DNA of 64,000 nucleotides from an uncultured Chloroflexia bacterium (GCA_963813535.1 CAWEZH010000002.1:1952001-2016000); one strand, 5' to 3'; numbered from the stretch's first letter, positions 36,238 through 55,558 are shown. Program-made: numbers and translations. The notes: generated from the letters alone by a model not told the origin.

Positions 36238-36309
36238 GCCGGGATGATACGGCCGAGTCGGCCGCGGGCCCGCCCGACCCGACGGACGCGCGGCCGCTAC
36301 CCTCCTCGG

Positions 36310-37422: not shown

Positions 37423-38288
37423 CCGCCCGGGGAGACGTCATGGTCCGCGCCGGGCGCGCGGACGATCTCCACCAGCTCGCCCGGATCATGGAGGCGAACG
37501 ACGAGGGCGTGGGCTGGCCGGACATGCCCGAGCTGGGCTATCCGTACCTGGAGCACGTCCTCCGCCACAAGCGCCTGCGTGTCGCCGAGCTCGACGGTCG
37601 CGTCGTCGGCATCGGCTCGGCCGCGGACCTGGGCAGCAGCGACGTCCGGATGGTGACGGACCTGTTCGTCGACCCGGATGCGCAGGAGCGCGGCTCCGGT
37701 CGAGCGTTGCTCGACGCGATCCTGGACGGTGCCCGGGAGCGGCTGACGTTCAGCTCCGCCGACGACCGAGCGCTCGGCCTGTATATCCGCGCGGGCATGC
37801 GGCCGTTCTGGCCGCTGCTCTACCTCGAGGTCGGGCCGGGCAGCCTTGGGCTGCATGATCCAGGCATCGAGGTGCGCGCGGCCGATCCCGCCGAAACGGC
37901 ACGCTGGTCGGCGACCTGGTCCGGTCTCGACCGATCATCCGATTTCGAGCACTACGCCTCGCTGCCGGGGGCGGCCGGCTTCAGCGTCATCGATGCGGGT
38001 GCGGTGGCTGCGGTCGGCTGGGCGCGTCGGGAGCAGGACGCGTCCGACGGCCGATGGCTCTCACACGCCTCGATCGCTCCCGACGCCGACCCGGTCCGAG
38101 CGACCTTCGCGCTCCTGCGGGCCGCCGCGGGTGACGAGCCACTCAACGCTCCCGTGCCCGGTCCCCATCCCGCCCTCGCCGCGCTCATCGAGCACGGCGC
38201 CAGGATCAGCGGTCGCGACACGTTCTGCGCCACCGATCCCGGCCTCGTCGACCCGGTCCGGATCCTGCCCAACCCGGCGTTCGTGTAG
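37419..38288 (+). CDS. Two-domain GNAT family acetyltransferase
   Basis: DLFVDPDAQERGSGRALL; ALGLYIRAGMRP; GTGA overlap with dmpA. Confidence 0.85.
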   Translation: MTARGDVMVRAGRADDLHQLARIMEANDEGVGWPDMPELGYPYLEHVLRHKRLRVAELDGRVVGIGSAADLGSSDVRMVTDLFVDPDAQERGSGRALLDAILDGARERLTFSSADDRALGLYIRAGMRPFWPLLYLEVGPGSLGLHDPGIEVRAADPAETARWSATWSGLDRSSDFEHYASLPGAAGFSVIDAGAVAAVGWARREQDASDGRWLSHASIAPDADPVRATFALLRAAAGDEPLNAPVPGPHPALAALIEHGARISGRDTFCATDPGLVDPVRILPNPAFV

Positions 38289-40733: not shown

Positions 40734-41213
40734 TCAGTCGGCGGACGTCGGTCGGTCGCGACGGCTGAACTCGGCGAGCCGCTCGGTACACTCGGCGGCC
40801 GCGCGCATCGCCTGGCGCACGATCCACGGGTCGACGCGGCTCGAGTCCTCCACGGTCAGCGTCGGACCCGACGGGCCGTCGGCGATATCGAGTCCCGAGC
40901 TGTTGCGATAGTCGGCCATCCAGTTCGCCTGGAGCTGGAGGGCGACGTCGGCGACGACGGACACGGGAAAGAGCCAGTCGAGGTACGACGCGTTCAGGCG
41001 ATCGGCGATGTCGGCAAGGCGGACCGGTCGTCCGCGCTCGAGCCGCGCGATGAGGTCGATGACCCGCACCGATGTGAAGGGATCCCGCGCCTCGCCCACC
41101 GTCGGCGGCGTGATCGACGGGTCCGGCATCCCTGCCGGGGCCGGTCGCAGCGGGCCCAGCCCGATGGTCGCGGTGGGGGCGTCGCTCACGAGGGGCATCT
41201 CCGACTGGATCAC
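40734..41213 (-). CDS. Hypothetical protein, possible winged-helix fold
   Basis: RVIDLIARL..GRPVRLADIADRL; fills the gap between known genes. Confidence 0.6.
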   Translation of the reverse strand: MIQSEMPLVSDAPTATIGLGPLRPAPAGMPDPSITPPTVGEARDPFTSVRVIDLIARLERGRPVRLADIADRLNASYLDWLFPVSVVADVALQLQANWMADYRNSSGLDIADGPSGPTLTVEDSSRVDPWIVRQAMRAAAECTERLAEFSRRDRPTSAD

Positions 41214-41376
41214 TGGGGATTGGCGAGTCTAGCGCATCGTGGATGAACCTTCACCGCTCGCCTCCCCTGCCCTGAACCGTTCTGGGGCATGCTTCCCGAT
41301 GCCGGACGGACGTCCGGCGCGTCTGCGCGGCGACCGCGCGGCCGAGCGTCCCCGCCGCACGAGCCCGATGCCTCCG

Positions 41377-42753
41377 ATGGACACCGACCCGATCCCGAAC
41401 CAGCCGACCACCGACCACGAGCCGCCGGGCGCGACCTCCCTCGCGCCGGGTCCCTCCCAGGTTCCGACGTCTTCGGCGACTGGTCACGGTGGCCGGACGG
41501 CGGCCATCGGTGCGGTCGTCGCGCTCGCGATGGTGGTGACGTTCACTGCCGGGATCGGGGTCGGACGACTGGTCGCGCCTCCTGGCGCTCCGGACGGGAC
41601 GGCCCCGAACCCAGGCTCCTCGCAGGGTGCCACCGAGTTCGGCCTCATCAGGGAGGCCTGGGACACGCTCCACCAGCAATTCGTCGGACGGGACGACCTT
41701 GACGACCGCGCGCTCATCTACGGGGCGATCGAAGGGCTGACCCAGGCGGTCGGCGACACCGGCCACACCGACTTCATGACGCCCGAGGAGCGCAAGCAGC
41801 GCAACGACTCGCTGTCGGGCTCGTACGTCGGCATCGGTGTCCGGATCGAGCCGGACGACGCCGGCTTGCCCAAGATCATCGGCGTCTTCGAGGGCAGCCC
41901 GGCCGAGACGGCGGGTCTCGTGCCCGATGACGTCATCATGGCCGTGGACGGGAAACGCACCGAGGACACGTCGATCGACCAGGTGGCAGGCTGGGTCCGC
42001 GGCGAGGCGGGCTCGACCGTCGAGCTGACCGTCCGCCGTGGCGCCGACGGTCCGGAGCGGACGGTACCGATCGTCCGCGCCGACGTTCCGATCCAGCCCG
42101 TGTCGTGGACGCTCGTGCCCGGCACCAAGACGGCGCTGTTCCGGCTTGAGCAGTTCTCCAACGGCGCCGCGGACGACATGGTCGAGACGCTGAAGGCTGC
42201 GCGGGCGGCCGGGGCGGACCGGATCGTGCTCGATATGCGGGGCAACCCGGGTGGCTACGTGAACGAGGCGGTCGGCGTCGCCAGCCAGTTCCTCACCAGC
42301 GGTCTCGTGTACGTCGAGCGCAACGCCGCCGGCGACCGGACGGAGCATCCCGTGTCGGCGAACGGCGTCGCGACCGATCTGCCGCTGGTCGTCGTCGTCG
42401 ACGGCAACACGGCGAGCTCGGCCGAGATCGTGTCCGGAGCGCTCCAGGACGCGGGTCGTGCCAAGGTCGTCGGCGAGACGACCTTCGGGACCGGGACCGT
42501 GCTCGGCGAGTTCGACCTGTCTGACGGATCGGCGCTGCGTGTCGGGACGGTCGAATGGCTGACGCCGAGCGGTCGGCGGATCTGGCACGAGGGGATCGCC
42601 CCTGACGTGCCGGTGGCCTTGCCCACAGAGACGCAGCCCCTCAGCCCCGAGGACGTGGCACGGCTGACCGCGGCTGCGGTCGGGTCCATCGACGACACAC
42701 AACTCGCCAGGGCCCTCGAGCTCGTGCGAACGGAGCAAGTCGCCACCAGATAG
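41377..42753 (+). CDS. ctpA: S41 family C-terminal processing protease (TM + PDZ + protease); start uncertain
   Basis: YVGIGVRI, GSPAETAGL (PDZ), LDMRGNPGG, TASSAE, WLTPSG. Confidence 0.9.
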   Translation: MDTDPIPNQPTTDHEPPGATSLAPGPSQVPTSSATGHGGRTAAIGAVVALAMVVTFTAGIGVGRLVAPPGAPDGTAPNPGSSQGATEFGLIREAWDTLHQQFVGRDDLDDRALIYGAIEGLTQAVGDTGHTDFMTPEERKQRNDSLSGSYVGIGVRIEPDDAGLPKIIGVFEGSPAETAGLVPDDVIMAVDGKRTEDTSIDQVAGWVRGEAGSTVELTVRRGADGPERTVPIVRADVPIQPVSWTLVPGTKTALFRLEQFSNGAADDMVETLKAARAAGADRIVLDMRGNPGGYVNEAVGVASQFLTSGLVYVERNAAGDRTEHPVSANGVATDLPLVVVVDGNTASSAEIVSGALQDAGRAKVVGETTFGTGTVLGEFDLSDGSALRVGTVEWLTPSGRRIWHEGIAPDVPVALPTETQPLSPEDVARLTAAAVGSIDDTQLARALELVRTEQVATR

Positions 42754-42834
42754 GGACGGCCTGATCGTCCCTTGGCACCCACAGCGACACCGTCGGCATC
42801 GGCGACACCTTCACAGGACTGCTACCGTCGGGAT

Positions 42835-44052
42835 GTGGCCACCACACCCGACGTCCTCATCATCGGCGGCGGCATCATCGGCAGTGCGACCGCGTACCAC
42901 CTCGCCCGGCGCGGAGCGTCGGTGACGTTGCTCGAAGCGAGCTCGCTGGCCTACGGCGCGACCGGTCGCAACCTGGGCTACATCTGGGTCCACACGCGTC
43001 GGCCCGGCCCCGAGCTCGAGCTCGTGATGCACCTCCGTCGCGAGCTCGAAGGGTTGCCGGAAGAGCTCGGCGCCGACTTCGGCCTGCGCACGGACGGTGG
43101 CCTGCTCTACGTGCACACCGAGGCCCAGCTGGCGACGCTCCGGGAATTCGTGGCGGGACGCCAGGCGGACGGCGTCGACATCCGGATGCTCGACGGCGAT
43201 GAAGCACGCTCGATGGCGCCGATCCTGCCAGACAGCGTGATCGGCGCCTCCTTCTGCCCCCTCGACGCCCAGATGGACTCGACCCGCTATGTGCGGGCGT
43301 TCGCGGCCGCCGCGGAGCGCGCCGGTGCGCGTGTGGTGGAAGGGACGGCGGTCCGAGGGTTCCAGCGCGACGGAGCGAATGTGACGGGCGTCGAGACCGA
43401 CGACGGGCCGATCACGGCCGGCTCTGTCGTCGTGGCTGCCGGTGCCTGGACGACCTCGTTGCTGGAAGGTCTCGACGTCGAGGTCCCGATCTTCCCGATG
43501 CGCCTCCAGATCGTCCAGACCGGGCCGATGCCGAGACTGCTCGGTCCGGTCCTCTATGGCCCGGGCGCGGTCAAGCAGTACCTGATCTTCCGCGAGCTGC
43601 CGAGCTTCCATGCCGAGGATTGGGCGAACGACGCCGAGGACCGCTACGGACGGATGCTGCTCGAAGCCGTCTGCCAGCGCGACGACGGCTCGTACCTGCT
43701 CGGCTGTGCCGTGGACTACCCCGGTCACGTCTGGGAGCCGGACGTTGCCGGGGTCGGGCTCGTCACCGATGCCATCCCCCACTCGATGCCTGCACTGCAG
43801 GGTGCCTCGTTCGCACGGGCGTGGGCCGGTGTCCTCCCGTACACCGCCGACAACCTGCCGATCGTCGATGCGCTGCCCGGGTTCGACAACGTCTACGTCG
43901 CCGCAGGCCACGTCTTCGGGAATGGGGCCGGGCCGACCACCGGGAGGCTGATGGCGGACCTCATCTGCGGGGCCGAACCGCCGATGGACATGACCCCGTT
44001 CCGTGCCGACCGTCCGAGCCTCACCCCGTCGGCCGACGGGAGCGTCTGGTGA
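42835..44052 (+). CDS. FAD-dependent oxidoreductase (DAO / glycine oxidase family)
   Basis: DVLIIGGGIIG, GATGRNLG, VVAAGAWT, YTADNLPI, AAGH. Confidence 0.92.
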   Translation: MATTPDVLIIGGGIIGSATAYHLARRGASVTLLEASSLAYGATGRNLGYIWVHTRRPGPELELVMHLRRELEGLPEELGADFGLRTDGGLLYVHTEAQLATLREFVAGRQADGVDIRMLDGDEARSMAPILPDSVIGASFCPLDAQMDSTRYVRAFAAAAERAGARVVEGTAVRGFQRDGANVTGVETDDGPITAGSVVVAAGAWTTSLLEGLDVEVPIFPMRLQIVQTGPMPRLLGPVLYGPGAVKQYLIFRELPSFHAEDWANDAEDRYGRMLLEAVCQRDDGSYLLGCAVDYPGHVWEPDVAGVGLVTDAIPHSMPALQGASFARAWAGVLPYTADNLPIVDALPGFDNVYVAAGHVFGNGAGPTTGRLMADLICGAEPPMDMTPFRADRPSLTPSADGSVW

Positions 44053-44861
44053 CGATGGGCGACGAGACACGCCGCATCGCCTTCATCAATCCGTTCGGCA
44101 CAGCGGCCTTCGACGAGATCATCGAGGACACGCTCGTCCCGTACGCCGGACCCGCGACCACGGTGGACGTGATCCATCTCGACGGGGTGCCGGAGAACAT
44201 CGACTACTACTACCCCAAGCACCTCATGGAGGTCGCCATCTTCCGCGCCGTGAGGCGGCTCGAGGGCGAGGGCTATGACGCGGTCGTGGTCGGTTGCTGC
44301 TACGACCCAGGCGTCAAGGTCGCCCGCGAGCTCGTCGACATCCCGGTCATCGGGCCGCTCGAGGCGGCCATGAACCATGCCTCGTACTTCGGCCACCGAT
44401 TCACGGTCATCACCGACCACCGCAAGGCCGTGCCATGGCTCGAGGACCTGGTGCGCCTCCACGGGGCGGCCAACTGCCGCGGTGTGCGCTGCATCGACTG
44501 GTACATCACCGACATGATCCGCGACCCATCGGCCGTGGCCGACGATGCCGCGGCCCGATCGTTGACGGCGCTCGACGAGGATGGCTCGGAGGTGATCATC
44601 CTCGGTTGCACGATCATCGCCGGCTGCCTCGAGCGCGAGATCATGACGACGGGCCGCCACCGCGAGCTGCCGATCCTCAATCCGAATCTGTTGGCACTCA
44701 AGGCCGCCGAGACCCTCGCCGACCTGCACAAGGCCGGGAAGTACTCGATCAGCCGCATGGGTCAATACCAGCGACACGAGCAACACGATGCGACGGAGGC
44801 GGCTGACGTCTGGCGGCGCTGGCGGCTCGTCGACCTGGATCATCCCGACGCCGGCGCATGA
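44049..44861 (+). CDS. Asp/Glu/hydantoin racemase family protein
   Basis: IAFINP, VVGCCYDPG, IPVIGP, IILGCT (two-Cys active site). Confidence 0.9.
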   Translation: MTMGDETRRIAFINPFGTAAFDEIIEDTLVPYAGPATTVDVIHLDGVPENIDYYYPKHLMEVAIFRAVRRLEGEGYDAVVVGCCYDPGVKVARELVDIPVIGPLEAAMNHASYFGHRFTVITDHRKAVPWLEDLVRLHGAANCRGVRCIDWYITDMIRDPSAVADDAAARSLTALDEDGSEVIILGCTIIAGCLEREIMTTGRHRELPILNPNLLALKAAETLADLHKAGKYSISRMGQYQRHEQHDATEAADVWRRWRLVDLDHPDAGA

Positions 44862-45851
44862 GCGTCGAGACGCATTCGGTCGAGGCGACGGCGCGACGGG
44901 TGGTCGCCGACTACCTTGCCGTCCGACCGCGTGAACGGTTCGCGATCGTCATCGATACCCGGACCGACCAGGAGATCCCGGGCGCCCTCGCCGCGGTGGC
45001 GCGCGACATCGGAGCGGAGCCGGTCGTCGTGACGATCGAGCCGCTTGCCCAGAGCGGCGCCGAACCGCCAGCCGGACGCAGCCCGCGCGATGCTCACCGC
45101 CGACGTCATCCTGTGTGCGGCCAGCACATCGCTCTATCACACCGCGGCCAAGGCGGCCGCGCAGCGGGCCGGCGCACGTGGCGATTTCAATGCGCCGTAT
45201 CGCGCCGACGCGTGGCGCGCTGGCGCGATGACGGCCGACTTCTTCGCGATCCGCGAGCAGGCCGAGCGACTCGCTGCCCTCTGGCGGGGGACAAACGAGG
45301 TCCGCATCACGTCTCCGGCGGGTACGGACCTGCGGGCGACGGTGCGCGGGCGGGAACCGGTCGCCTGGCGCACCGGGATCTGTCGCGAACCAGGCGAGGT
45401 CTCGGCGCTGCCCGGCGGTGAGGTGTCCGTTCCGCCGCTCGAGGCGACGGCGAACGGGGTCGTCGTCTGGGAGCGCGTCGCGTCGGACCTCGGGGCCCTC
45501 GACGAACCCGTCCGCTTCACAGTCCGCGACGGCCGCGCGGTCGACGTCGAAGGCGGCCGCTCCGCCGCGCGACTTCGCGACATCGTGGCGAGCGTGGTGG
45601 ACGCCGACAACATCGCCGAGATCGGCATCGGCCTCAACCCGGCGGCCCGGATCGCGGACGAGATCACCGAGGCGAAGAAGGCGTACGGCACGGTCCATAT
45701 CGCGCTCGGCGACTCGGCCAACGAGTACGGCGGGACGGTCGAATGCGACGTCCATCTCGATGGGCTGGTCATGGCGCCGACGATCACGTTCGACGACAGG
45801 GCGGTCGTCGTCGACGGCCGCCACGTGTACGCCGGTGCATCGGAGGCGTGA
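44858..45851 (+). pseudogene. M29-like metallo-aminopeptidase fold protein, frameshifted near 45074 (real lesion or sequencing error)
   Basis: LAVRPRERFAIVID...GAEPP in one frame; AMLTADV...ITSPAGTDL...LPGGE...IAEIGIGLNP...GTVHIALGD...HLDG in the next. Confidence 0.82.
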
Positions 45852-45855
45852 GTCG

Positions 45856-47169
45856 ATGACGCGCTATCCGGGACCGAAGGCCCGCGTCCTCATCGAGCGC
45901 ATGCGCCGAGTCGAAGGTGCCGGCCCTCGGACCGGCGCCGGCGAACCGTTGGTCATCGATCACGCGGCCGGCGCCACCCTCGTCGACCCAGACGGCAACC
46001 GCTTCACCGACCTGGCAGGCAGCTTCGCGGCTGCGACGATCGGCCACAGCCACCCCGACGTGGTGACGGCGGTCGAAGCCCAGATCGGCGCCGCGAGTCA
46101 CGTGTCGTCAGCGGCGATCAGCGAGCAGCGTGTCGGGTTCGAGGAGGACCTCGTCGGGATCGCCCCGCAGGGACTCGACCGCGTCCTGCTCGGGATCAGC
46201 GGCGCCGACGCGAACGACACGGCCGTGAAGCTCGCACGGACCCTCACCGGTCGACGCGAGGTGCTCGCGTTCTCGGGTGGGTACTTCGGTCGGGCCGGCG
46301 GAGTCGTCGGTCTGAACGGGAAGGCGTCGTTCCGGTCGCGGGCCGGCGTCGATCCGGACGCCCATTTCCTGCCGTTCCCGGATCCGTATCGCTGGCCGGA
46401 TGAGCTGGGCGGGCCGGCCGTTGCGGGCGATGCGGCGCTTCAGCTGGTCCGCGATGCGCTGGAGGATCCGGCGTCGGGGATCGGCCCCCTCGCGGCGATC
46501 GTCGTCGAACCGGTCCAGGGCAACGGTGGCATCGTGAGTCCGCCGGACGGGTTCCTGGCCGGGCTCCGGGCGCTGTGCGACGCGCACGGGGTCGTGCTGA
46601 TCTTCGATGAGATCCAGGCCGGGTTCGGGCGCACCGGCAGGATGTGGGCGGCGGAGCACGCGGGCGTCGTGCCCGACCTCATGACGGTCGGCAAGGGCAT
46701 CGGCGGCGGCATGGCGCTGTCGGCCGTGGTCGGGAACGCCGGATCCATGAGCCACTGGTCCGCCGGCACCCATACGTCCACCTTCCTCGGGAACGCCGTG
46801 AACCTGGCGGCCGGCCGGGCCGCGATCCGGGTCATGTGCCGCGACCGGCTGTGGGAGCGATCGGCCGGCCTCGGCTCGCGCCTCCTCGACCGGCTGGCCG
46901 AGGGTCTCGACGGAGTAGCGCATGTCGGGGATATCCGGGGCCGAGGCCTGTTCATCGGCATCGAGCTGGTCAGTGACAGGGCGACGAAGAAGCCCGATCC
47001 GGAGGCCTGCGCAGCCGTCCGCGAGCACGCCTTCGATGCGGGCGTCGTCGTTGCCGTCGCCGGTCGATACGAGCAGGTCGTGAAGATCAGCCCGCCCCTG
47101 ACGATCGATGAGCGCCAGGCGAACGACGCGATCGACGTGGTGATCGATGCGATCCGGAGGAGTCGATGA
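45856..47169 (+). CDS. Class III PLP aminotransferase (GabT-like)
   Basis: DPDGNRFTD, EPVQGNGG, FDEIQAGFGRTG, TVGKGIGGG, STFLGN. Confidence 0.93.
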   Translation: MTRYPGPKARVLIERMRRVEGAGPRTGAGEPLVIDHAAGATLVDPDGNRFTDLAGSFAAATIGHSHPDVVTAVEAQIGAASHVSSAAISEQRVGFEEDLVGIAPQGLDRVLLGISGADANDTAVKLARTLTGRREVLAFSGGYFGRAGGVVGLNGKASFRSRAGVDPDAHFLPFPDPYRWPDELGGPAVAGDAALQLVRDALEDPASGIGPLAAIVVEPVQGNGGIVSPPDGFLAGLRALCDAHGVVLIFDEIQAGFGRTGRMWAAEHAGVVPDLMTVGKGIGGGMALSAVVGNAGSMSHWSAGTHTSTFLGNAVNLAAGRAAIRVMCRDRLWERSAGLGSRLLDRLAEGLDGVAHVGDIRGRGLFIGIELVSDRATKKPDPEACAAVREHAFDAGVVVAVAGRYEQVVKISPPLTIDERQANDAIDVVIDAIRRSR

Positions 47170-48653
47170 TCGAGACCGGGACGGCGGCGCGAGAGGTCTT
47201 CAACTACATCGACGGCGGCTGGGTCCCCAGCAGCGGCGAGACATTCGAGAGCCGCGACCCGGCCACGGGTGACCTCGTCGCGACCGCGACCGCCTCCACG
47301 CTCGACGACGTGTCCGCGGCCATCGAGGCCGCCCGTCGCGCATTCGACCAGACCGGCTGGCCGACGACGGCGGGCAAGGAGCGTGCGGCGATCCTGTACG
47401 AGCTCGCCCGGCTCCTGCGTGAGGAGTCGCCGCGACTGGCCGAGCTCGTCGCTCGAGAGATGGGCAAGCCGATCCGGTACGTCCGCGAACGGGAGCTCGA
47501 GCCGGCCATCGACCGCATCCTGTTCTACGCCGGGGCAGCGAGGCTCATCCAGGGCGACGTCACGAGCTCGGCGCCGGGCCACCTGCTCAACCTGGTCCTG
47601 AAGGAGCCCGTCGGCGTGTGCGGGCTCATCACGCCCTGGAACGACCCCGTCGACCTGCCCTTGCGCAAGATCGGTGCCGCGATCGCCACCGGCTGCACGT
47701 TCGTGCTGAAACCGGCCAGCGACGCCCCGGCCTCGTCGATGGCGATCTTCGAGCTGCTCGACCGGATCGAAGCGCTGCCCCCAGGTGTCGCCAACGGCGT
47801 CGTCGGGCAAGGCGAGGTCATCGGTGAGGCGCTTGCCGCCGACCCGCACGTCGACAAGATCAGCTTCACCGGCAGCAGCGAGGTCGGCCGCCGGCTGATC
47901 GAGCTCGGCGCGCGAAACTTCAAGCGGGTCGCGATCGAAGGCGGCGGAAAAGCACCGGTGATCGTGTTCCCGGACGCGAACCTCGACAAGGCGCTCGACG
48001 CGGTCGCTGTCGGCATCTTCCTGTACGCCGGTCAGTCATGTACCGCGGGATCCCGACTGCTGCTCCATCGGTCGATCCACGACGCGTTCCTCGACGGGCT
48101 GATCGCCCGGGCCAGGGCGCTCAAGGTCGGGTCACCGCTCGAGGAGGACACGCAGCTCGGCCCGATGGTCTCGGCCCGCCAGCTCGATCGTGTCCTGGGA
48201 TATGTCGAGCAAGGTCGCAAGGAGCAGGCTCGCCTCATCCTCGGCGGAGAGCGGCTCGGCGGTGACTGGGCGAACGGCTACTACATGGCGCCGACCATCT
48301 TCGATGACGTCCGCTCCGACATGGCCATCGCGCGCGAGGAGATCTTCGGGCCGGTCCTGTCGGTCTTGACCTTCGATGACGAGGACGAGGCCCTCGCCAT
48401 CGCCAACGACAACCCGCTCGGTCTCGGCAGTGCGGTCTGGACCAGGGATCTCGACCGTGCCATCCGCCTCGCCAGGCGGCTCCGCGTCGGCGACGTGTGG
48501 GTCAACACGCACTATGTCCGCCTGGCCGAGAGCCCGTTCGGCGGCGTCAAGGGCAGCGGCATCGGCCGCGAGCTCGGCATGGAAGGGCTCGACGAATACC
48601 TCGAGACGAAGCGCATCTGTATCGATAGCTCCCCGACGTTCCACATCCGCTGA
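47166..48653 (+). CDS. NAD(P)-dependent aldehyde dehydrogenase
   Basis: TPWNDP, FTGSSEVG, EGGGKAP, AGQSCTAG, EEIFGPV. Confidence 0.94.
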   Translation: MIETGTAAREVFNYIDGGWVPSSGETFESRDPATGDLVATATASTLDDVSAAIEAARRAFDQTGWPTTAGKERAAILYELARLLREESPRLAELVAREMGKPIRYVRERELEPAIDRILFYAGAARLIQGDVTSSAPGHLLNLVLKEPVGVCGLITPWNDPVDLPLRKIGAAIATGCTFVLKPASDAPASSMAIFELLDRIEALPPGVANGVVGQGEVIGEALAADPHVDKISFTGSSEVGRRLIELGARNFKRVAIEGGGKAPVIVFPDANLDKALDAVAVGIFLYAGQSCTAGSRLLLHRSIHDAFLDGLIARARALKVGSPLEEDTQLGPMVSARQLDRVLGYVEQGRKEQARLILGGERLGGDWANGYYMAPTIFDDVRSDMAIAREEIFGPVLSVLTFDDEDEALAIANDNPLGLGSAVWTRDLDRAIRLARRLRVGDVWVNTHYVRLAESPFGGVKGSGIGRELGMEGLDEYLETKRICIDSSPTFHIR

Positions 48654-48654
48654 C

Positions 48655-50148
48655 GTGGCGTCACGCCGCATCTCCCCAACGGAGCCGGCGCCGAGCCCCC
48701 CACGGCGCCGGGTCCGATACACCTTCGACGGGCGTTCGCTCGAAGGTTTCGACGGCGAGCCGCTGGCCGTCGCGCTGTTGGCTGCGGACCGGCCGATCCT
48801 GTCGCGCAGCTTCCGGTTCCACCGCCCGCGCGGGCTCATGTGCGACACGGGTCAATGCGGCTGGTGCGAGTGCGAGATCGACGGTCGCCCCAGCGTCCGG
48901 TCGTGCCAGGTGCCGGTGCGGGAGGGACTGGTGGCTCGCGGCGAACACGCCTGGCCGTCGGTCCAGCGGGATCTGTTCGGGCTGCTCGATCTCGGCTCGC
49001 GGCTCGTCCCGCCGACGTTCTACCACCATCGATTCCTCCGGCCCCGGAGGCTTCGGAGGCGCTACCTCGACGTCATCCGGCGGTTCGGCGGCCGTGGCCG
49101 GCTGCCGGTCGGCCGCTCGGCAGCACCTCGGTCGCGCGTGGCACGCACCCTCGAGGTCGACGTCCTGGTCATCGGCGGCGGGCGCTCGGGAGTCGCCGCT
49201 GCGGACGAGGCGGCAGAACGCGGATCGAGCGTGGCGCTGCTCGAGACCGTCGCTCAGCGCGCCCATCCGCGGCATCCCGGGATCCGTTTCCTCGATGGGG
49301 CGACGGCCGTGGGTTGGTACGACGGGATCGTCACTGCCATCGACGACTCCGCGTCGTGGTCGATCCGAGCGGGATCCGTCATCGCCGCGACCGGGACCTA
49401 CGAGCGCGTGCCCGCAGTCCGGGGAGCGGATCGGCCGGGCGTGATCGGCGCGCGGCGGGCCATCGACCTCGTCACGACGCACGGCGTCCTGCCCGGCGAA
49501 CGGCCGCTGCTCGTCGGGGAGCCTGGGGACCTGGCCGGGGCGCAGGCCGCGCTCGAGCGAGCCGGCGCGCGGTTGACGGGTCCGGTCCCGACCTCCGCCC
49601 TTCGACGCGTCCTCGGTCGACGTCGGGTGACAGGCGCCGTCGTCGGCGGTACAGGCCGAGCACGGCGTCTGTCGGTCGACCTCGTCGTCTTCGGCGATCG
49701 GACGCCCAACCTCGACCTCGTGCTGGCGGCCGGCGCATCCGTCGAACAGCGCGACGGTGTCCTCCGACCGATCCTCGACGACGCCGGCCGGACGACGGTG
49801 CCGATGCTCTCGGTCGTCGGCTCGGCGACGGGCGCCGGGGTCGCGAGCGCCGCCGTCCGACCGGCCCGCAGGGCGCTCCTGTGTTTCTGTGAGGACGTCC
49901 ACGCGGACGAGATCGAGGCACAGCTCGTCGCGGGCTACGGCGACCCCGAACTGGTCAAGCGGCGGACCGGTGCCCTGACCGGGCCGTGCCAGGGGAAGTA
50001 CTGCCTCCAGGCGTTCGCGAGCACCGTGGCCGGTGCGTCTGGTACGGACGGCCTGACCTCCCCGTTGCCGCTGCCGACCGCTCGGCCGCCACTGCGCCCG
50101 ATCCGCCTCGGCGACCTCGTCGCGACCGAGGGAACGCAGGACGCATGA
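48655..50148 (+). CDS. Sarcosine-oxidase / proline-dehydrogenase / opine-oxidase alpha-like subunit (N-terminal 2Fe-2S, FAD/NAD-binding, C-terminal BFD-like)
   Basis: SRSFRFHRPRGLMCDTGQCGWC...RSC; VLVIGGG; IAATGTYER; CFCEDV...GPCQGKYC...ARPP; no GcvT domain. Confidence 0.85.
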   Translation: MASRRISPTEPAPSPPRRRVRYTFDGRSLEGFDGEPLAVALLAADRPILSRSFRFHRPRGLMCDTGQCGWCECEIDGRPSVRSCQVPVREGLVARGEHAWPSVQRDLFGLLDLGSRLVPPTFYHHRFLRPRRLRRRYLDVIRRFGGRGRLPVGRSAAPRSRVARTLEVDVLVIGGGRSGVAAADEAAERGSSVALLETVAQRAHPRHPGIRFLDGATAVGWYDGIVTAIDDSASWSIRAGSVIAATGTYERVPAVRGADRPGVIGARRAIDLVTTHGVLPGERPLLVGEPGDLAGAQAALERAGARLTGPVPTSALRRVLGRRRVTGAVVGGTGRARRLSVDLVVFGDRTPNLDLVLAAGASVEQRDGVLRPILDDAGRTTVPMLSVVGSATGAGVASAAVRPARRALLCFCEDVHADEIEAQLVAGYGDPELVKRRTGALTGPCQGKYCLQAFASTVAGASGTDGLTSPLPLPTARPPLRPIRLGDLVATEGTQDA

Positions 50149-51341
50149 CGCTGCCACGGACAGCCGACGTCGTCATCGTGGGGGCGGGGATCGGCGGGCT
50201 CGGTGCCGCCCGCGAGCTGGCGGCCCGTGGCGTCCGCCGGATCGTGATCGTCGAGCGGGACTACCCGGGCTCCGGTGCGACCGGCCGGAACGTGGCACGG
50301 ATCCGACGGATGCAGCTCACCGAGGAGCTCTGTCGCGTCGCGATGGCGTGCCAGGACAAATACGAGCGGATGGGCGGCGAGCTCCGCTCGAACGTCCTGT
50401 TCTACCGCCTCGGCTACGCCTGGATCCTGTACGAGCCACAGGAGCTCGAGCGGATGCGCGATGTCGTCGCGATCCACGCGCGACTCGGGATCCGCAGCGC
50501 GCTGCTGTCCCCGGACGAGACGCTACGGCACCTGCCCGTGTTCGAAGGGGGCGAGCCGGTCGCCGGCTCCGTCCTGAGCGACGACGCGATCGTCCACCAC
50601 GATGCCGTCGTCTGGGCACACCTCGATCATCTCGCCGGCCGCGACGTCGAGATCCATCCGCACACGACGGTGACCGGCATCGAACGCGACGCGGGGCATA
50701 TCCGGGCGGTCGTCACCGATCAGGGCCGGATCGAGACCTCGCTCGTGCTCAACGCCGCCGGCGGCTGGTCAGGCCAGCTCAACGCCATGGCCGGCGTGCA
50801 GATGCCGAACCGGCCGCTCCGCCGCGAAGTGCTCGTGACCGCCCCGCTGCGTCGGACGATCGAGGCCGCGGTCACGTTCTACCGTCCGAGCGAGGGCTGG
50901 TTCAACCAGACCCTTCGTGGCGAGGTCGTGATGGGTGCGGTCGACCCCGACGAACCGGCCGGCGTCGAGCAACGTTCGTCGTGGGCATTCCTGCAGCGGA
51001 CCGCGGCGCTGATGACGCGCAAGGCGCCGGCCCTGCGCGACGTCACGGTCATCCGCCAATGGGGCGGGATGTACGACATCACGCCCGACCACCTGCCGAT
51101 CGTCGGCCCGACCGCACAGCTCGGCGGCTGGTGGCAGGCGCTCGGCTGGAGCGGCCGCGGCATGCTGCTGGCCCCGTACCTCACGGAGCTCATGGCCGAG
51201 CACATGGTCGCCGGCGAGGCGCCCGCGATGCTCCGCCCGTTCCTCCCCGATCGGTTCGCGCCGACGGGGGAACCCACCGGGCCGATGGAGACCGACTACT
51301 ACGCGCGCTATCCGGCGGGCTCGTCGGCCCCCGCGCGCTGA
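50145..51341 (+). CDS. FAD-dependent oxidoreductase, sarcosine-oxidase beta-like subunit
   Basis: DVVIVGAGIGG, GATGRN, RQWGGMYDITPDHLPIVG, GWSGRG; ATGA overlap. Confidence 0.9.
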   Translation: MTLPRTADVVIVGAGIGGLGAARELAARGVRRIVIVERDYPGSGATGRNVARIRRMQLTEELCRVAMACQDKYERMGGELRSNVLFYRLGYAWILYEPQELERMRDVVAIHARLGIRSALLSPDETLRHLPVFEGGEPVAGSVLSDDAIVHHDAVVWAHLDHLAGRDVEIHPHTTVTGIERDAGHIRAVVTDQGRIETSLVLNAAGGWSGQLNAMAGVQMPNRPLRREVLVTAPLRRTIEAAVTFYRPSEGWFNQTLRGEVVMGAVDPDEPAGVEQRSSWAFLQRTAALMTRKAPALRDVTVIRQWGGMYDITPDHLPIVGPTAQLGGWWQALGWSGRGMLLAPYLTELMAEHMVAGEAPAMLRPFLPDRFAPTGEPTGPMETDYYARYPAGSSAPAR

Positions 51342-51544
51342 TCCGGCTCGGGCGCCGGTCGCCCCGGCTCGTCGTCGGGGAAGACGACCTCGATGCCGTC
51401 GCCGTCACCCGACACGCCACGCACGGGCTGCGACTTCGCGACGAGCTCGTGGGCGGGCGGCAGCGTCCGGAAGACCTCCTGGTCGAAGCCGACGAGCATC
51501 GAGCCGATCGTCTGGCCCGTCGGACGCTTGCGCTTCTTCGTCAT
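51308..51544 (-). CDS. Small hypothetical protein
   Basis: MTKKRKRPTGQTIGSMLVGFDQEVFRTLPP...; ATGA overlap with MFS gene. Confidence 0.6.
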   Translation of the reverse strand: MTKKRKRPTGQTIGSMLVGFDQEVFRTLPPAHELVAKSQPVRGVSGDGDGIEVVFPDDEPGRPAPEPDQRAGADEPAG

Positions 51545-52791
51545 GCCGGGGCCGACACCGGCGTCGCGACATCGACGTCCGGACCCTTGCGCCGGATCGC
51601 GAGGGCGGCGAAGCCCGCGACGATCGCGATCCATCCGGCCGCGACGAACGCGACGGCGTAGTCCCCGACGTTCTCGCGGACGACGCCCGCCACCCAGGCG
51701 GCGATCGCGGCCCCGATCATGTGCGAGGCGAACACCCAGCCATACACGACACCGACGTTGTGCTGCCCGAATTGGTCCGCGACCAGCGCGACCGTGGGCG
51801 GGACGGTCGCGATGTAGTCGAGCCCGAACAGGATCGCGAACGCCGCGATCGTCATCGTGTCGTGGACGAACGGCAGGAAGAGCAGGCTGACGCCCCGGAA
51901 GCTGTAGTAGACGAGCAGGAGCCGGCGCGGGTCGACGCGATCGGTCAACCAGCCACTCGAGATCGTACCGATGAAGTTGAAGACGCCCATGACGGCCAGC
52001 GCCGTCGAGGCGGCGACCGGCGTGAACCCGTGGTCGACCGCATGCGGGATGAAGTGCTGGCCGACCAGACCGTTCGATGTCGCGCCGCAGATGAAGAACG
52101 TCCCGGCCAGGAACCAGAAGTCGGAGGTGCGGACGGCTCGGCCCATGACACCCCGGTCGGGTGGTCGGACGTGGGCGATCTCGCCGTCGGTCGCGCCACG
52201 CGGTCGTTCGCCGACATCGGCTGGGTCGTTCCGAAGCCAGATCAGCACCGGGATGAGGAGCAGCAGCGAGATCACCCCGAGCACGATCGCGCCGGTCCGC
52301 CACCCGACAGCGACAGCGAGCCCCGTCAGCAGCGGGAAGAACACGAGCTGGCCCGCGCTGTTGCTTGCCCCGAAGAGGCCGACGACGAGACCACGATCCT
52401 TCACGAACCAGCGCGTCGCGACCGTCGGGCCGAGGACGCTGGCAACGAGACCCGTGCCGAGCCCGGATACCAGGCCGAACAACAGCGTGAGCTGCCAGAT
52501 CTCGCGGGTGAAGCTGGTCGCGATCAGCGCTGCGCCCGTCACCGCGAGACTCAGGAGCACGACGTTCTTGACGCCGATCCGACCCATCAGCCAGCCGCTC
52601 AGGGGACCGGCGAGGCCGAACACGATCAGGCCGGCAGCGGCCGCGAACGACACCGACGCGGTCGACCAGCCCGGCTCTTCGGTCATGGACAGCAGGAACG
52701 CGCCCGGCGCGGATCGGACGCCGGCTGTGACCAGGACGACGATCGCCGTGACGGTGACGACGATCCAGCCGTAGAAGATCGCGCGACGCAT
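51541..52791 (-). CDS. MFS transporter
   Basis: YGWIVV, GWLMGRIG, RWFVKDRGL, GWLTDRVDPR; about 12 TM. Confidence 0.93.
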   Translation of the reverse strand: MRRAIFYGWIVVTVTAIVVLVTAGVRSAPGAFLLSMTEEPGWSTASVSFAAAAGLIVFGLAGPLSGWLMGRIGVKNVVLLSLAVTGAALIATSFTREIWQLTLLFGLVSGLGTGLVASVLGPTVATRWFVKDRGLVVGLFGASNSAGQLVFFPLLTGLAVAVGWRTGAIVLGVISLLLLIPVLIWLRNDPADVGERPRGATDGEIAHVRPPDRGVMGRAVRTSDFWFLAGTFFICGATSNGLVGQHFIPHAVDHGFTPVAASTALAVMGVFNFIGTISSGWLTDRVDPRRLLLVYYSFRGVSLLFLPFVHDTMTIAAFAILFGLDYIATVPPTVALVADQFGQHNVGVVYGWVFASHMIGAAIAAWVAGVVRENVGDYAVAFVAAGWIAIVAGFAALAIRRKGPDVDVATPVSAPA

Positions 52792-52948
52792 CCGCGGATG
52801 CTACCGCGCGTCGAGCCCGAGGCGCCTCGCGGTCAGCCGGTCGGGTCCGGGGTGGGCCCGGGGGTCGGGTCGAGCAAGTCCCGGCTGGGCTTGCGTCGCT
52901 TATTGCTCACGCCGGGCCCAGACCAGCCGTGCGCGTCGGCATCCGGTC

Positions 52949-52991
52949 GACGCGGGACCGGGCGTCGCCTCGACGAGCCCGGACCCGCGTC
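52949..52991 (-). terminator. Long GC stem-loop downstream of the SHOCT gene
   Basis: GACGCGGG-A-CCGGGC-GTCG..CGAC..GCCCGG-A-CCCGCGTC. Confidence 0.55.
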
Positions 52992-53018
52992 ACCACGATG
53001 TGGTCGGGATGGCCTTGG

Positions 53019-53358: not shown

Positions 53359-53778
53359 TCAGGCGACCGTGGACATGGCCTCCTCGACGAGCTGGGCCGG
53401 GATCCGGCCATTCGCGATGAGGATCCCGTCGGCGTTGCGCAGCGATTCGGCGAACTTCGCCGCCCACACGTTCTCCCAGATCATGAGCCCGGCGGTGCTG
53501 TTCGGGTCCAGGGCGGCGCCGATCTCCTCGACGTCCTCCTGGCCGAGCAGCCTCGTCCCTTTGACGCCGAGGACGGCGAGTGTGGCGGCCTCTTCGGGGC
53601 TCGCTTCGGACAGCTCGATGGCGGTCACGTTTCCGTCACCGTCTTTGCTGATGATCACCAGGTCGAGGACCTGGATCGTTCCCGAGTCCTGTAGCGCCTT
53701 GATCGCCGGAACGATCTCGCCCGAGAACTTGTTCCCCGGAAACGCGATGGCGATGTATTCGACCGGACCGATGCTCAT
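53359..53778 (-). CDS. DUF6325-like family protein
   Basis: GPVEYIAIAFPG, IQVLDLVIISKD, WENVWA, GRIP; usual SHOCT partner. Confidence 0.82.
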   Translation of the reverse strand: MSIGPVEYIAIAFPGNKFSGEIVPAIKALQDSGTIQVLDLVIISKDGDGNVTAIELSEASPEEAATLAVLGVKGTRLLGQEDVEEIGAALDPNSTAGLMIWENVWAAKFAESLRNADGILIANGRIPAQLVEEAMSTVA

Positions 53779-53938: not shown

Positions 53939-55507
53939 CTAGAGCAGTTCTCCGTGGGCCGATCCGGTCGGCTCGCCCTCACGCGGTCGGGGTTCCTCGC
54001 CGGGACCGAAGTCGGCCTTCGACTCGTCGCCGTTGCCCGACTCGAGAACCTTCAATGGCGCTCCGGCCTGGCCCTCGATCGCCCCGACCCCGAAGGGCAC
54101 CCACTTCGACGGGTCCTGCAATCGATGCGCCTCGGTGTTGCCGCGCGCATGGACCTCATCGAAGCCCTTCGGCTCGATCCACATCCGTTCGCCCTCCAGC
54201 AGGCCGAGCACGCCGGACTGGCCGGGCTCAGGCCGTTCGTGCTGGCAATAGGCGCACGAGGCCGTGTCGTGCTTGCGGTAGGTCTCGGGCTCCTCGTACG
54301 TCGTGATGTAGCCCTCGTAGTTGCGCAGGACGACCTTGTGGTCCGAGTACGAGATCAGGTAGTTCGGCATGACCGGGATCTTGCCGCCGCCGCCGGGCGC
54401 GTCGATCACGAAGGTCGGTACCGCGTAGCCCGACGTATGCCCGCGCAGACCCTCCATGATCTCGAGTCCCTTACCGACCGGCGTCCGGAAATGCCCCGAG
54501 CCCTCGACCAGGTCGCACTGGTACAGGTAGTAGGGCCGGATCCGGTTCGCAACGAGCTGGTGCACGAGCGCGCGCTGGATGTGGACGCAGTCGTTGACGC
54601 CGGCAAGCAGCACGCTCTGGTTGCCGACCGGCAGCCCCGCCTTCGACAGCTTGTCGACCGCGCGGGATACCTCCGGGGTGATCTCGTTGGGATGGTTGAA
54701 GTGGAGGTTGATCCACAGCGGGTGGTACTTCTCGAGCATCTCGCAGAGCTCGTCGTCGATGCGCTGCGGCAGGAAGACCGGCACCCTCGAGCCGATCCGG
54801 ATGATCTCGATGTGGGGGATCTCGCGCAGACCGCGCAGGATCGATTCGAACAGCTTCGGGGCGAGGGTCAGGCCGTCGCCGCCGGAGATCAGCACGTCAC
54901 GGACCTGCGGCGTCCGGCGCAGGTACTCGAGCTGCGCCTCGTGGTCCTTGCGGTTGAAGTTCTGGGTCGGGTCGCCGACGATCCGCGACCGCGTGCAGTA
55001 CCGGCAGTACGAGGCGCACTGGGTGGTCACGAGCATCAGCACCCGGTCCGGGTAGCGGTGGACCAACCCGGGCACCGGCGAGTGGCGATCCTCGGCGAGC
55101 GAGTCCTCCATCATCGCGGTGAAGGCCTCGTGCTCGCTGCCGGTCGGGATGACCTGACGGCGGATCGGGTCGTTCGGGTCCTTCGGATCGATCAGGCTGA
55201 TGAAGTAGGGCGTGATGTCGACGCGGAACTTGTCAGGCGCCGATAGCCCCTCGCGCTCCTCGTCGGTCAGCTCGAGGATCCGTTCGATCTCCTCGAGGTC
55301 GTTGACCCGGTTCGACAGCTGCCAGCGCCAGTCGTTCCACTTCTCGTCGGGCACATCCTCGTAGATCGGGGCGCGCCGGCTGACCGCCGGACGACCGTCC
55401 GGGCCGAGCGCTCGAGCCGGGTCGGACATGTTGACGAACGGCGCCTCGGCGGCCGCCTTCGCCGCTGCCTGGTGCGCGACCGCGGTCTTGATCTCCTGGG
55501 CGTCCAA
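53939..55507 (-). CDS. kamA: Lysine 2,3-aminomutase (KamA radical SAM/PLP)
   Basis: WNDWRWQ, HRYPDRVL, CASYCRYCTR, HFNHPNE, NQSVLL, DAPGGGGKIP (PLP Lys), RNYEG, CAYC; start at TTG 55507 (GGAG RBS) or ATG 55546. Confidence 0.92.
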   Translation of the reverse strand: MDAQEIKTAVAHQAAAKAAAEAPFVNMSDPARALGPDGRPAVSRRAPIYEDVPDEKWNDWRWQLSNRVNDLEEIERILELTDEEREGLSAPDKFRVDITPYFISLIDPKDPNDPIRRQVIPTGSEHEAFTAMMEDSLAEDRHSPVPGLVHRYPDRVLMLVTTQCASYCRYCTRSRIVGDPTQNFNRKDHEAQLEYLRRTPQVRDVLISGGDGLTLAPKLFESILRGLREIPHIEIIRIGSRVPVFLPQRIDDELCEMLEKYHPLWINLHFNHPNEITPEVSRAVDKLSKAGLPVGNQSVLLAGVNDCVHIQRALVHQLVANRIRPYYLYQCDLVEGSGHFRTPVGKGLEIMEGLRGHTSGYAVPTFVIDAPGGGGKIPVMPNYLISYSDHKVVLRNYEGYITTYEEPETYRKHDTASCAYCQHERPEPGQSGVLGLLEGERMWIEPKGFDEVHARGNTEAHRLQDPSKWVPFGVGAIEGQAGAPLKVLESGNGDESKADFGPGEEPRPREGEPTGSAHGELL

Positions 55508-55541
55508 CCGGCTCCGACCTCCGCGTGGGTGGTGGCAGCGA

Positions 55542-55558
55542 TGCATAGAGTCTATGCA
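55542..55558. promoter_or_regulatory. Perfect 8-1-8 palindrome over the kamA promoter
   Basis: TGCATAGA-G-TCTATGCA; AT-rich; contains minus-strand TAGACT -10-like hexamer. Confidence 0.7.

Follow-up and report, generated by a model that had tools for sequence, protein, structure and literature searches.

Which compound does the seven-gene operon at positions 42835-51341 of this DNA break down, and has its pathway been described before? The operon lies in a stretch of 64,000 nucleotides (nt) from an uncultured Chloroflexia bacterium (GCA_963813535.1 CAWEZH010000002.1:1952001-2016000), called the window below, and codes for a DAO-family oxidoreductase, a two-Cys racemase, an M29-like metallohydrolase, a class III pyridoxal phosphate (PLP) enzyme, an aldehyde dehydrogenase (ALDH), and the alpha and beta subunits of an iron-sulfur flavoprotein. 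An earlier reading of the DNA (the sequence-only reading) had named these seven enzymes, and Pfam bears out every domain call. It also held that no characterised operon has this combination, which agrees with the present results: none of the seven proteins passes any NCBIfam equivalog cut-off, two of them (racemase and M29-like protein) having no NCBIfam match at all, and the gene combination is not described in the literature searched (open-access full text and bioRxiv). The favoured interpretation, with a probability of about 50%, is that the locus is a horizontally shared accessory catabolic island for a chiral organic nitrogen compound derived from an amino or imino acid, in which an amide, peptide-like or cyclic bond ties up the reactive amine, and that it matches no described pathway. 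Sequence alone cannot name this substrate, and every substrate and reaction step discussed below is one that we infer.

The seven genes form a conserved unit

The distribution of the seven-gene set identifies it as a real, conserved unit. A search of genome_contigs with the M29-like protein as probe found 58 loci, in 46 of which all seven genes are colinear within 10.5 kb. A contig end cuts the cluster in eight others, and one (L080) is partial with many frame breaks; another, titled Gaiellaceae (L072), holds all seven genes in rearranged order, and the last two, from Nocardia and Frankia, have only the M29-like gene, 45-46% identical and in unrelated context. Within the genus, 10 of the 11 fetched loci keep all seven genes in order and the eleventh leaves its contig. 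Much of this conservation is shared descent in one genus, and the loci are not independent counts. Failure of the genes to co-occur elsewhere had been named beforehand as a finding that would speak against a common pathway; all seven are found together in the 46 loci and in two Thermoleophilia.

Among 41 relatives, the M29-like probe matches 12, the source of the window, G000, included; 11 of 24 congeners match, and none of 16 genomes from a genus of the same order with small genomes. In an even draw of 201 genomes from the class, 11 matched, among them nine of 11 congeners and one genome of another family (G156, unpublished and entering no other result). The records of close relatives are titled ‘uncultured Chloroflexia bacterium’ or ‘Candidatus Limnocylindrales bacterium’ and are soil-type metagenome-assembled genomes (MAGs).

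The two Thermoleophilia (Actinomycetota), L072 and genome G341 (locus L096), carry the seven genes as two divergent operons, with M29-like, class III and ALDH genes on one strand and alpha, beta, racemase and DAO genes, followed by a GntR/FCD regulator, on the other. Their proteins are 33-63% identical to those of the window. Since these genomes keep the M29-like, class III and ALDH genes apart from the alpha-beta-racemase-DAO group, a hydrolase, aminotransferase and ALDH acting in sequence as one unit fits the arrangement. In G341, the operon with the M29-like gene runs on into an APC permease, a metallophosphoesterase-like gene and a nucleotidyltransferase-fold gene, and the permease is 49% identical to that of Limnocylindria. 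Because G341 shares the divergent layout of L072 and carries this trio, the two modules and the trio are linked in two phyla. Two further genes occur at individual loci. A DUF1989 gene follows the ALDH gene in the Gaiellaceae locus only, and its top NCBIfam matches are the N-terminal part of trimethylamine N-oxide demethylase and urea-amidolyase-associated proteins. A CoxG/SRPBCC gene stands between the DAO and racemase genes in 5/58 loci.

In the window, where the G+C content of the region is ~70%, the junctions among the seven genes are gaps of 2, 4 or 1 nt or overlaps of 4 nt, such as the ATGA at 47166-47169 shared by the class III and ALDH genes (Table 1); the tight spacing noted before is thus borne out by the coordinates. 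The single leaderless promoter proposed alongside it fared less well, as a sigma-70 consensus scan of 42400-51800 gave no promoter-like site. The hexamer TACCGT stands 7 nt 5’ of the DAO start codon (GTG) and is a match of pattern only. The consensus scan of the same interval gave one terminator-like site, within the alpha gene, and Rfam had no match in 41000-53000. An inverted repeat, GGGACG-N7-CGTCCC, begins on the last base of the S41 protease stop codon. TT alone follows it and TACCGT comes next; the consensus scans passed the repeat over.

Table 1. Operon genes and other features named in the text; positions are those of the window unless a locus is given.
Feature	Position	Strand	Pfam
DAO-family FAD-dependent oxidoreductase, 405 aa, first gene of the operon	42835-44052	+	PF01266
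Two-Cys racemase/epimerase, hydantoin/allantoin racemase branch, 268 aa	44055-44861	+	PF01177
M29/NicX-family metallohydrolase-like protein, ~330 aa, 1-nt insertion near 45071-45073	44858-45851	+	PF02073, PF26233
Class III (fold type I) PLP enzyme, 437 aa	45856-47169	+	PF00202
NAD(P)-dependent ALDH, 495 aa	47166-48653	+	PF00171
Alpha subunit, [2Fe-2S] N-terminus, dinucleotide-binding domain, C-terminal BFD/SO_alpha_A3 Cys cluster, 497 aa	48655-50148	+	Fer2_4, SO_alpha_A3, Fer2_BFD
Beta subunit, catalytic, DAO-family, 398 aa	50145-51341	+	DAO
APC permease, metallophosphoesterase-like and nucleotidyltransferase-fold genes, Limnocylindria example	L053 2662-6016		
APC permease, metallophosphoesterase-like and nucleotidyltransferase-fold genes, G341	L096 48-3163	-	
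Inverted repeat GGGACG-N7-CGTCCC	42753-42771		
S58 (DmpA/BapA-type) peptidase, then GNAT acetyltransferase	35896-38288	+	
DUF6325 gene	53359-53778		
AblA-type radical-SAM lysine 2,3-aminomutase	53939-55546	-	
DUF1989 gene, Gaiellaceae locus	L072 13771-14319		
CoxG/SRPBCC gene, example	L040 8719-9162		
Alpha gene split over two frames, G024	L013 11569-13069		
Alpha and beta in one 998-codon open frame	L042 13798-16791		
Salinigranum rubrum plasmid gene group	L082 40-13283		

Enzymes of the two modules

The M29-like protein has the fold that the sequence-only reading gave it (Pfam Peptidase_M29, E 5.9e-10, 39-40 bits against a cut-off of 27, over model positions 196-352 of 406 only), although its gene in the window is not one open frame, owing to a 1-nt insertion near 45071-45073 that escaped that reading. 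Residues E188, E254, H280, H299 and D301 are invariant in 12/12 close sequences; in distant ones E188, E254 and H280 are kept in 7/7 and H299/D301 in 6/7. These five are candidates for the two-metal ligands of M29 peptidases (aminopeptidase T/S type; Glu, Glu, His, His, Asp), going by their spacing and not by a structural alignment. The only solved sequence that the protein matches is NicX (2,5-dihydroxypyridine 5,6-dioxygenase, PDB 7CN3, E 4.8e-6), an Fe(II) enzyme whose iron ligands are presumably His265, His318 and Asp320. In the phmmer alignment to 7cn3 the H-x-D pair is kept and His265 pairs with Glu254. This replacement set aside both a NicX-type dioxygenase as the first-choice role of the gene and the identity of the operon with a nic cluster. 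Since NicX His265 is a Glu here and H280, absent from NicX, is kept, the ligand set resembles that of M29 hydrolases, and its residues suggest a two-metal hydrolase more than an Fe(II) dioxygenase. An AlphaFold2 model built with the 12 close sequences has a mean pLDDT (the confidence score of the model) of 63.9, with a poor C-terminal half.

The class III enzyme keeps its fold (PF00202, Aminotran_3, E 1.7e-98, 330 bits) and the DE[IV]Q.G and T.GK motifs in 43/43 orthologues, which upholds the class assigned to it earlier. The label ‘aminotransferase’ is insecure, because a carboxylate-binding Arg is replaced by Lys and the closest solved relatives are PLP racemases. The Arg in question, in the motif N-V-L-R-x-x-P-P-L, presumably binds the alpha-carboxylate of the substrate; it is present in the five best solved relatives and is Lys in the window and in 43/43 orthologues, the Gaiellaceae one included. 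Archaeal PLP racemases, isoleucine 2-epimerase and alpha-amino-epsilon-caprolactam (ACL) racemase come first among the solved relatives, followed by gamma-aminobutyrate (GABA) aminotransferases. The top NCBIfam match, an aminotransferase model, gives 344.5 bits against a cut-off of 574; diaminobutyrate transaminase models give 306 bits and PLP-racemase models 257 bits, and the protein also scores on ornithine/acetylornithine and 2-aminoadipate transaminase models.

In one improbable alternative, this protein is a racemase or lyase and the compounds handled by the cluster are amino-acid amides, amino lactams or phospho-amino alcohols, with the aldehyde for the ALDH coming from a lyase or from the flavoenzymes. 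The universal Lys is consistent with such a role, as are the seven best solved relatives, all PLP racemases or epimerases, with ACL racemase and the racemase for amino-acid amides in their number; matches to class III phospho-lyases occur too, and a metallophosphoesterase-like gene travels with the cluster. However, NCBIfam aminotransferase models score ~90 bits above racemase models (344 vs 257), and the overlap with the ALDH gene, the adjacency of the two genes in the 46 colinear loci and the separate M29-like, class III and ALDH module in Thermoleophilia all fit an aldehyde-forming transaminase. The class III enzyme is probably an omega-aminotransferase, with racemase or lyase as the alternative.

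The ALDH (PF00171, E 1.3e-166) scores best on the aminobutyraldehyde dehydrogenase model (469 bits against a cut-off of 615), with betaine-aldehyde dehydrogenase next; among solved proteins, betaine-aldehyde and aminoaldehyde dehydrogenases come closest. Both sequence variants singled out in the sequence-only reading, WNDP and EGGGK, recur in orthologues: PWNDP and the catalytic Cys motif GQSCTA occur in 43/43, as does the Glu motif E[G/A/C]GGK (EGGGK in 23, EAGGK in 18, ECGGK in 2). Where PWNDP stands, the usual ALDH form presumably has an aromatic residue, and the Asp in the substrate tunnel suggests a positively charged aminoaldehyde as substrate. Taken with the lost carboxylate-binding Arg of the class III enzyme, and on general structure-function knowledge, this Asp points to a reacting amine and aldehyde that are positively charged and do not sit beside a carboxylate; a diamine-like, amide or lactam substrate would fit both features.

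These matches bear on a second alternative, also improbable, in which the cluster would degrade an N-substituted diamine or polyamine much as the Puu pathway of E. coli degrades putrescine. In Puu, and in routes for lactams and omega-amino acids, a flavin amine oxidase, an ALDH, a hydrolase, a class III aminotransferase and an APC importer work together. The DAO protein, in the place of PuuB, would oxidise the unblocked amine of the substrate, the ALDH (PuuC) would give an omega-amino acid still carrying its block, the M29-like protein (PuuD) would take the block off and the class III enzyme (PuuE) would transaminate the product, while the racemase and alpha/beta enzyme would handle the released chiral moiety. 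The parallel in enzyme classes, which we take to extend to the APC importer, speaks for this, as do the top ALDH models, the solved class III relatives, which include PuuE and GabT, and the conserved Asp, which would suit a cationic aldehyde. Against it, no glutamine-synthetase-like PuuA occurs in the cluster, whose genes all have an assignment, or with the accessory genes that relatives carry, the search being limited to these genes; Thermoleophilia group the DAO gene with alpha, beta and racemase and not with the ALDH and hydrolase; and the racemase would have no role for achiral polyamines. The missing PuuA-like gene led to the rejection of membership in the E. coli pathway itself.

The second module centers on an alpha/beta flavoprotein. 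Alpha matches Fer2_4 at residues 18-96 (E 1.8e-22), SO_alpha_A3 (1.1e-7) and Fer2_BFD (E 3e-5; 24.7 bits, slightly below the 26-bit cut-off), and both of its Cys motifs are kept in 25/26 orthologues. It covers only positions 16-230 of the 996 in the soxA model, with 167 bits against a cut-off of 1164, and no GcvT folate-binding domain was found by Pfam in its 497 residues. Beta (Pfam DAO, E 1e-57) scores 171 bits on the soxB model against a cut-off of 529. The best solved relatives of the two are the alpha and beta subunits of the Pyrococcus horikoshii L-proline dehydrogenase PDH1 (1y56_A, E 1.3e-19, and 1y56_B, E 3.2e-47), with sarcosine oxidase beta subunits at ~5e-28. Since all junctions of the seven genes are ≤4 nt, they leave no room for gamma or delta genes within the operon; together with the Pfam result and the soxA coverage, this supports the earlier statement that the enzyme is not a classical sarcosine oxidase. 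Alpha itself varies in form. It is longer in several loci, where the alignment runs to 675 columns for the 497-aa query and a fusion or insertion is possible; in some loci, such as L042, alpha and beta share one open frame, and in the closest relative, G024, a MAG of the ‘MFD’ title series in which frame breaks are frequent (see below), the alpha gene is split over two frames.

The first gene of the operon codes for a further DAO-family protein (PF01266, E 4.4e-70), 27% identical to beta. On NCBIfam it comes nearest to ThiO (159.5 bits, cut-off 250.8), and among solved structures to glycine oxidases and PDH1 beta (1y56_B), with alignment confined to the N-terminal part (for the glycine oxidases, the N-terminal half). 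A predicted complex of alpha with this protein scored 0.00, an answerless result that counts neither for nor against their pairing.

The racemase (PF01177, E 5.5e-31, 108 bits against a cut-off of 31) has as solved relatives a putative hydantoin racemase (3qvj, 1.1e-20), an allantoin racemase (5lfd, 4e-19) and the fungal peptide epimerase OpaE (9qbx, 1e-16). Both catalytic Cys residues align with those of 3qvj and 5lfd, and their motifs, VVGCCYDPG and LGCT, are kept in 49/51 orthologues, as expected for the two-Cys racemase proposed before.

Close to the idea of the sequence-only reading is a funnel for imino or basic amino acids, which seems unlikely. D/L-proline, pipecolate, ornithine or lysine, or their lactams or opines, would be racemised; the DAO protein and the PDH1-like alpha/beta enzyme would form cyclic imines or semialdehydes, the class III enzyme would serve as ornithine or lysine omega-aminotransferase, and the ALDH would yield glutamate or aminoadipate. 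The kinship of alpha/beta to PDH1 is consistent with this scheme, and so are the class III scores on ornithine/acetylornithine and 2-aminoadipate models, the ACL racemase among the solved relatives and the amino-acid APC type of the permease. However, the ALDH scores better as an aminobutyraldehyde dehydrogenase (469 bits) than as an L-glutamate gamma-semialdehyde dehydrogenase (319 bits), the racemase is of the hydantoin/allantoin branch, neither DapF-like nor of proline racemase type, a gene for a pyrroline- or piperideine-2-carboxylate reductase is missing from the cluster, and the class III enzyme is without its carboxylate-binding Arg.

Accessory genes and the genomic island

The unit is larger than the sequence-only reading saw, and the window copy is an imperfect representative of it. 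That reading noted neither transporter nor regulator, which holds for the window and for G000 but not for relatives. Upstream of the cluster, a divergent PucR-type regulator (GAF, GGDEF_2, HTH_30) is present in 39/58 loci and an APC permease with a metallophosphoesterase-like gene in 23/58, 14 of these 23 also having the nucleotidyltransferase-fold gene. The metallophosphoesterase-like protein has DxH, GD, GNDD and GHxH motifs, which we take as the signature of that family, plus a helical insert; the nucleotidyltransferase-fold protein has a GG...DxD pattern. Pfam scores are weak for both, and a profile of the former against PDB gave spurious helical matches only. G000 (92.9% complete) yielded no orthologue of the permease, the metallophosphoesterase-like, the nucleotidyltransferase-fold or the PucR-type gene.

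The M29-like gene of the window is split into a frame A from 44858 and a frame B to 45851, which are joined by dropping one base near 45071-45073. Relatives G024 and G021 align without the extra base, and in relatives the gene is intact, with 330 aa and precomputed matches to Pfam PF02073 and PF26233 (named NicX). Parts of 44700-45500 occur in 20 of the 24 soil-metagenome runs listed, at a word share ≤0.28; among contigs from four runs, one that is ~93% identical bridges the break with one letter fewer at 45071, and no near-identical contig bridging 45071-45073 was found in these four. Multi-frame tblastn pieces make up 52/154 gene instances in MAGs of the ‘MFD’ title series, which we infer to be long-read assemblies, vs 1/158 in other MAGs; for the M29-like gene only, the counts are 7/25 vs 0/29. 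As frame breaks are common in the ‘MFD’ MAGs and G000 consists of 3.28 Mb in 3 contigs, the break is probably a long-read assembly indel.

The same observations raise the question of whether the G000 operon is a decaying remnant, with a true M29 pseudogene and with transporter and regulator lost. The insertion relative to relatives and the four missing accessory orthologues would agree with decay. The other six genes, however, are open with all conserved motifs kept, the frequency of frame breaks in the ‘MFD’ series and the 3-contig assembly offer another source for the insertion, and in G024, the closest relative, an equally reduced layout comes with an undamaged M29-like gene. Decay of this copy is accordingly judged quite improbable.

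Present in some congeners and absent from others, the cluster is an island within a conserved backbone. In both G000 and G024, its nearest relative, the DAO gene directly adjoins the S41 protease gene, and three congeners without the cluster (G005, G023 and G020) have rhodanese, a 159-aa gene, S41, in some cases MFS, lysine 2,3-aminomutase and MMPL genes contiguous. Because they are contiguous in cluster-less congeners, the convergent MFS transporter and the aminomutase beside the window cluster are backbone genes, and the MFS transporter, the S41 protease and the AblA-type lysine 2,3-aminomutase were on this ground dismissed as cluster members. S41 and MFS genes stand after beta, not before DAO, in four loci. 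The aminomutase scores 556 bits, above its NCBIfam equivalog cut-off of 525, and adjoins a DUF6325 gene; it is found in 18 loci, 86-94% identical across most, with one piece in L073 at 50%. On the other side of the window cluster, an S58 (DmpA/BapA-type) peptidase gene overlaps a GNAT acetyltransferase gene by 4 nt. S58 is found upstream of the cluster in 11/58 loci and GNAT in 5/58, and the S58 peptidase and the AblA-type aminomutase might indicate a link with beta-amino acids.

Homologues of the M29-like gene also occur on haloarchaeal plasmids. On that of Salinigranum rubrum (L082), it is annotated as an ‘aminopeptidase’ and is grouped with genes for an ABC transporter, DUF917, DUF1177, AroM, an Asp/Glu racemase, a succinylglutamate desuccinylase/aspartoacylase-family protein and an Lrp regulator, and on a Halorussus plasmid it adjoins a gene for an enolase-C-terminal-domain protein. 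These racemase and enolase-type neighbors hint at a recurring pairing of epimerase and hydrolase. The Salinigranum group also bears on ectoine degradation of the Doe/Eut type, a very unlikely role for the operon. The M29-like protein would hydrolyse a cyclic amidine or N-acetyl-diaminobutyrate, diaminobutyrate would be transaminated (DoeD-like), aspartate semialdehyde would be oxidised (DoeC-like), and the racemase would stand in for EutA. The Salinigranum Asp/Glu racemase, desuccinylase/aspartoacylase-family gene and Lrp regulator, the last two of which we take to resemble DoeB and DoeX, would suit this role, as would the diaminobutyrate transaminase models among the class III matches. However, neither an M24 ectoine hydrolase nor an AstE/AspA-family deacetylase is present in the cluster or its accessory genes, the DAO protein and the alpha/beta enzyme would be without a role, and again no equivalog cut-off is reached. 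The two missing enzymes led to the rejection of Doe/Eut membership.

Candidate pathway and comparison with known systems

Under the favoured interpretation, a catabolic island for an amine-blocked chiral compound, the enzymes would fall into two modules. In the first, the M29/NicX-like protein, a putative dinuclear metallohydrolase, would cleave an amide and free an amine, the class III PLP enzyme would convert this terminal amine to an aldehyde, and the ALDH would oxidise the aldehyde to a carboxylate. In the second module, the hydantoin-type two-Cys racemase would invert a stereocentre adjoining a carbonyl, and the DAO protein and the iron-sulfur flavoprotein, with its gamma part fused to alpha and paired with beta, would oxidise C-N bonds in the amino or imino portion, with the respiratory chain and not O2 as electron acceptor. 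Uptake in relatives may occur through the APC-family permease, and control may rest with the PucR-type regulator in Limnocylindria or the GntR/FCD-type one in Thermoleophilia; the window copy would have lost its accessory genes. The order of steps given in the sequence-only reading, in which racemisation and oxidation precede amide hydrolysis, omega-transamination and a final oxidation, is possible as one reading among several.

Several points weigh against this interpretation. First, two C-N oxidising flavoenzymes in one pathway lack an explanation. Second, the model assigns no role to the metallophosphoesterase-like and nucleotidyltransferase-fold genes, which hint at a phosphorylated or nucleotidylated substrate. 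Third, the transaminase role may be doubtful for a class III enzyme with Lys for Arg and racemase relatives. Fourth, with no equivalog cut-off reached, the specificity of each enzyme is not fixed. Fifth, the G000 copy, with a broken M29 frame and accessory orthologues not found, could be decaying.

There is about an even chance that the operon encodes a complete undescribed pathway for a soil nitrogen compound, with new activities for the M29/NicX-like hydrolase, the Arg-to-Lys PLP enzyme, the PWNDP ALDH and the gamma-alpha-fused/beta flavoprotein. Possible substrates of such a pathway are amino-amides, either D-configured or N-substituted, and amino compounds that carry a phosphoryl or nucleotidyl group. 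Limnocylindria and Thermoleophilia are abundant soil bacteria, almost wholly uncultured, and to our knowledge little is known of their nutrition. A conserved, mobile unit of 10-11 genes, whose enzymes all lie outside named families, points to a nitrogen-rich substrate beyond current annotation. Identifying that substrate would supply functions for a large branch of NicX/M29 proteins annotated as ‘aminopeptidase’ (767 of 8000 scored candidates match, the best 120 at 75-100% identity), and would extend the opine/proline dehydrogenase family to an enzyme whose gamma and alpha subunits are fused. The alpha/beta dehydrogenase, the DAO protein, the M29-like hydrolase, the Arg-to-Lys PLP enzyme and the PWNDP ALDH are offered for assay.

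Relative to E. coli Puu, the gamma-glutamyl ligase is missing, the hydrolase is of another family, and a racemase and an alpha/beta dehydrogenase are added. The M29-like protein matches PF02073 and PF26233, like peptidase M29 and NicX, but at 330 aa is shorter than the 406-position M29 model. The racemase shares its fold and both catalytic Cys residues with the hydantoin and allantoin racemases (3QVJ, 5LFD) and with OpaE (9QBX; PMC12661438); it differs in having no hydantoinase or carbamoylase partner gene and no NCBIfam model match.

The alpha/beta pair resembles two families. As in sarcosine oxidase SoxABDG, beta matches soxB and alpha matches the N-terminal 215 positions of soxA; however, alpha is not a ~1000-aa protein with GcvT, the gamma and delta genes are missing, and the scores are far under the cut-offs, on which grounds the classical heterotetrameric enzyme was rejected. 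According to PMC4575208, PDH1, opine dehydrogenase, D-hydroxyproline dehydrogenase and hydrogen cyanide (HCN) synthase form one family, the last three having a separate small [2Fe-2S] gamma subunit. By its predicted domains, the pair has the architecture of this family (PDH1, PDB 1Y56; bacterial opine dehydrogenase OdhABC; D-hydroxyproline dehydrogenase; HCN synthase), in which a DAO-family beta is joined by an alpha with dinucleotide-binding domain and C-terminal Cys cluster. It differs in three respects: the [2Fe-2S] gamma part is fused to the alpha N-terminus as Fer2_4, a second DAO-family gene is present, and the neighboring genes code for a racemase, an M29-like protein, a class III enzyme and an ALDH and not for ABC opine transporters or hydroxyproline enzymes. 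The locus is thus not a new kind of system but a catabolic operon assembled from known superfamilies, set apart by conserved features that are unusual within them: the Arg-to-Lys class III enzyme, the PWNDP ALDH and the fused gamma-alpha subunit.

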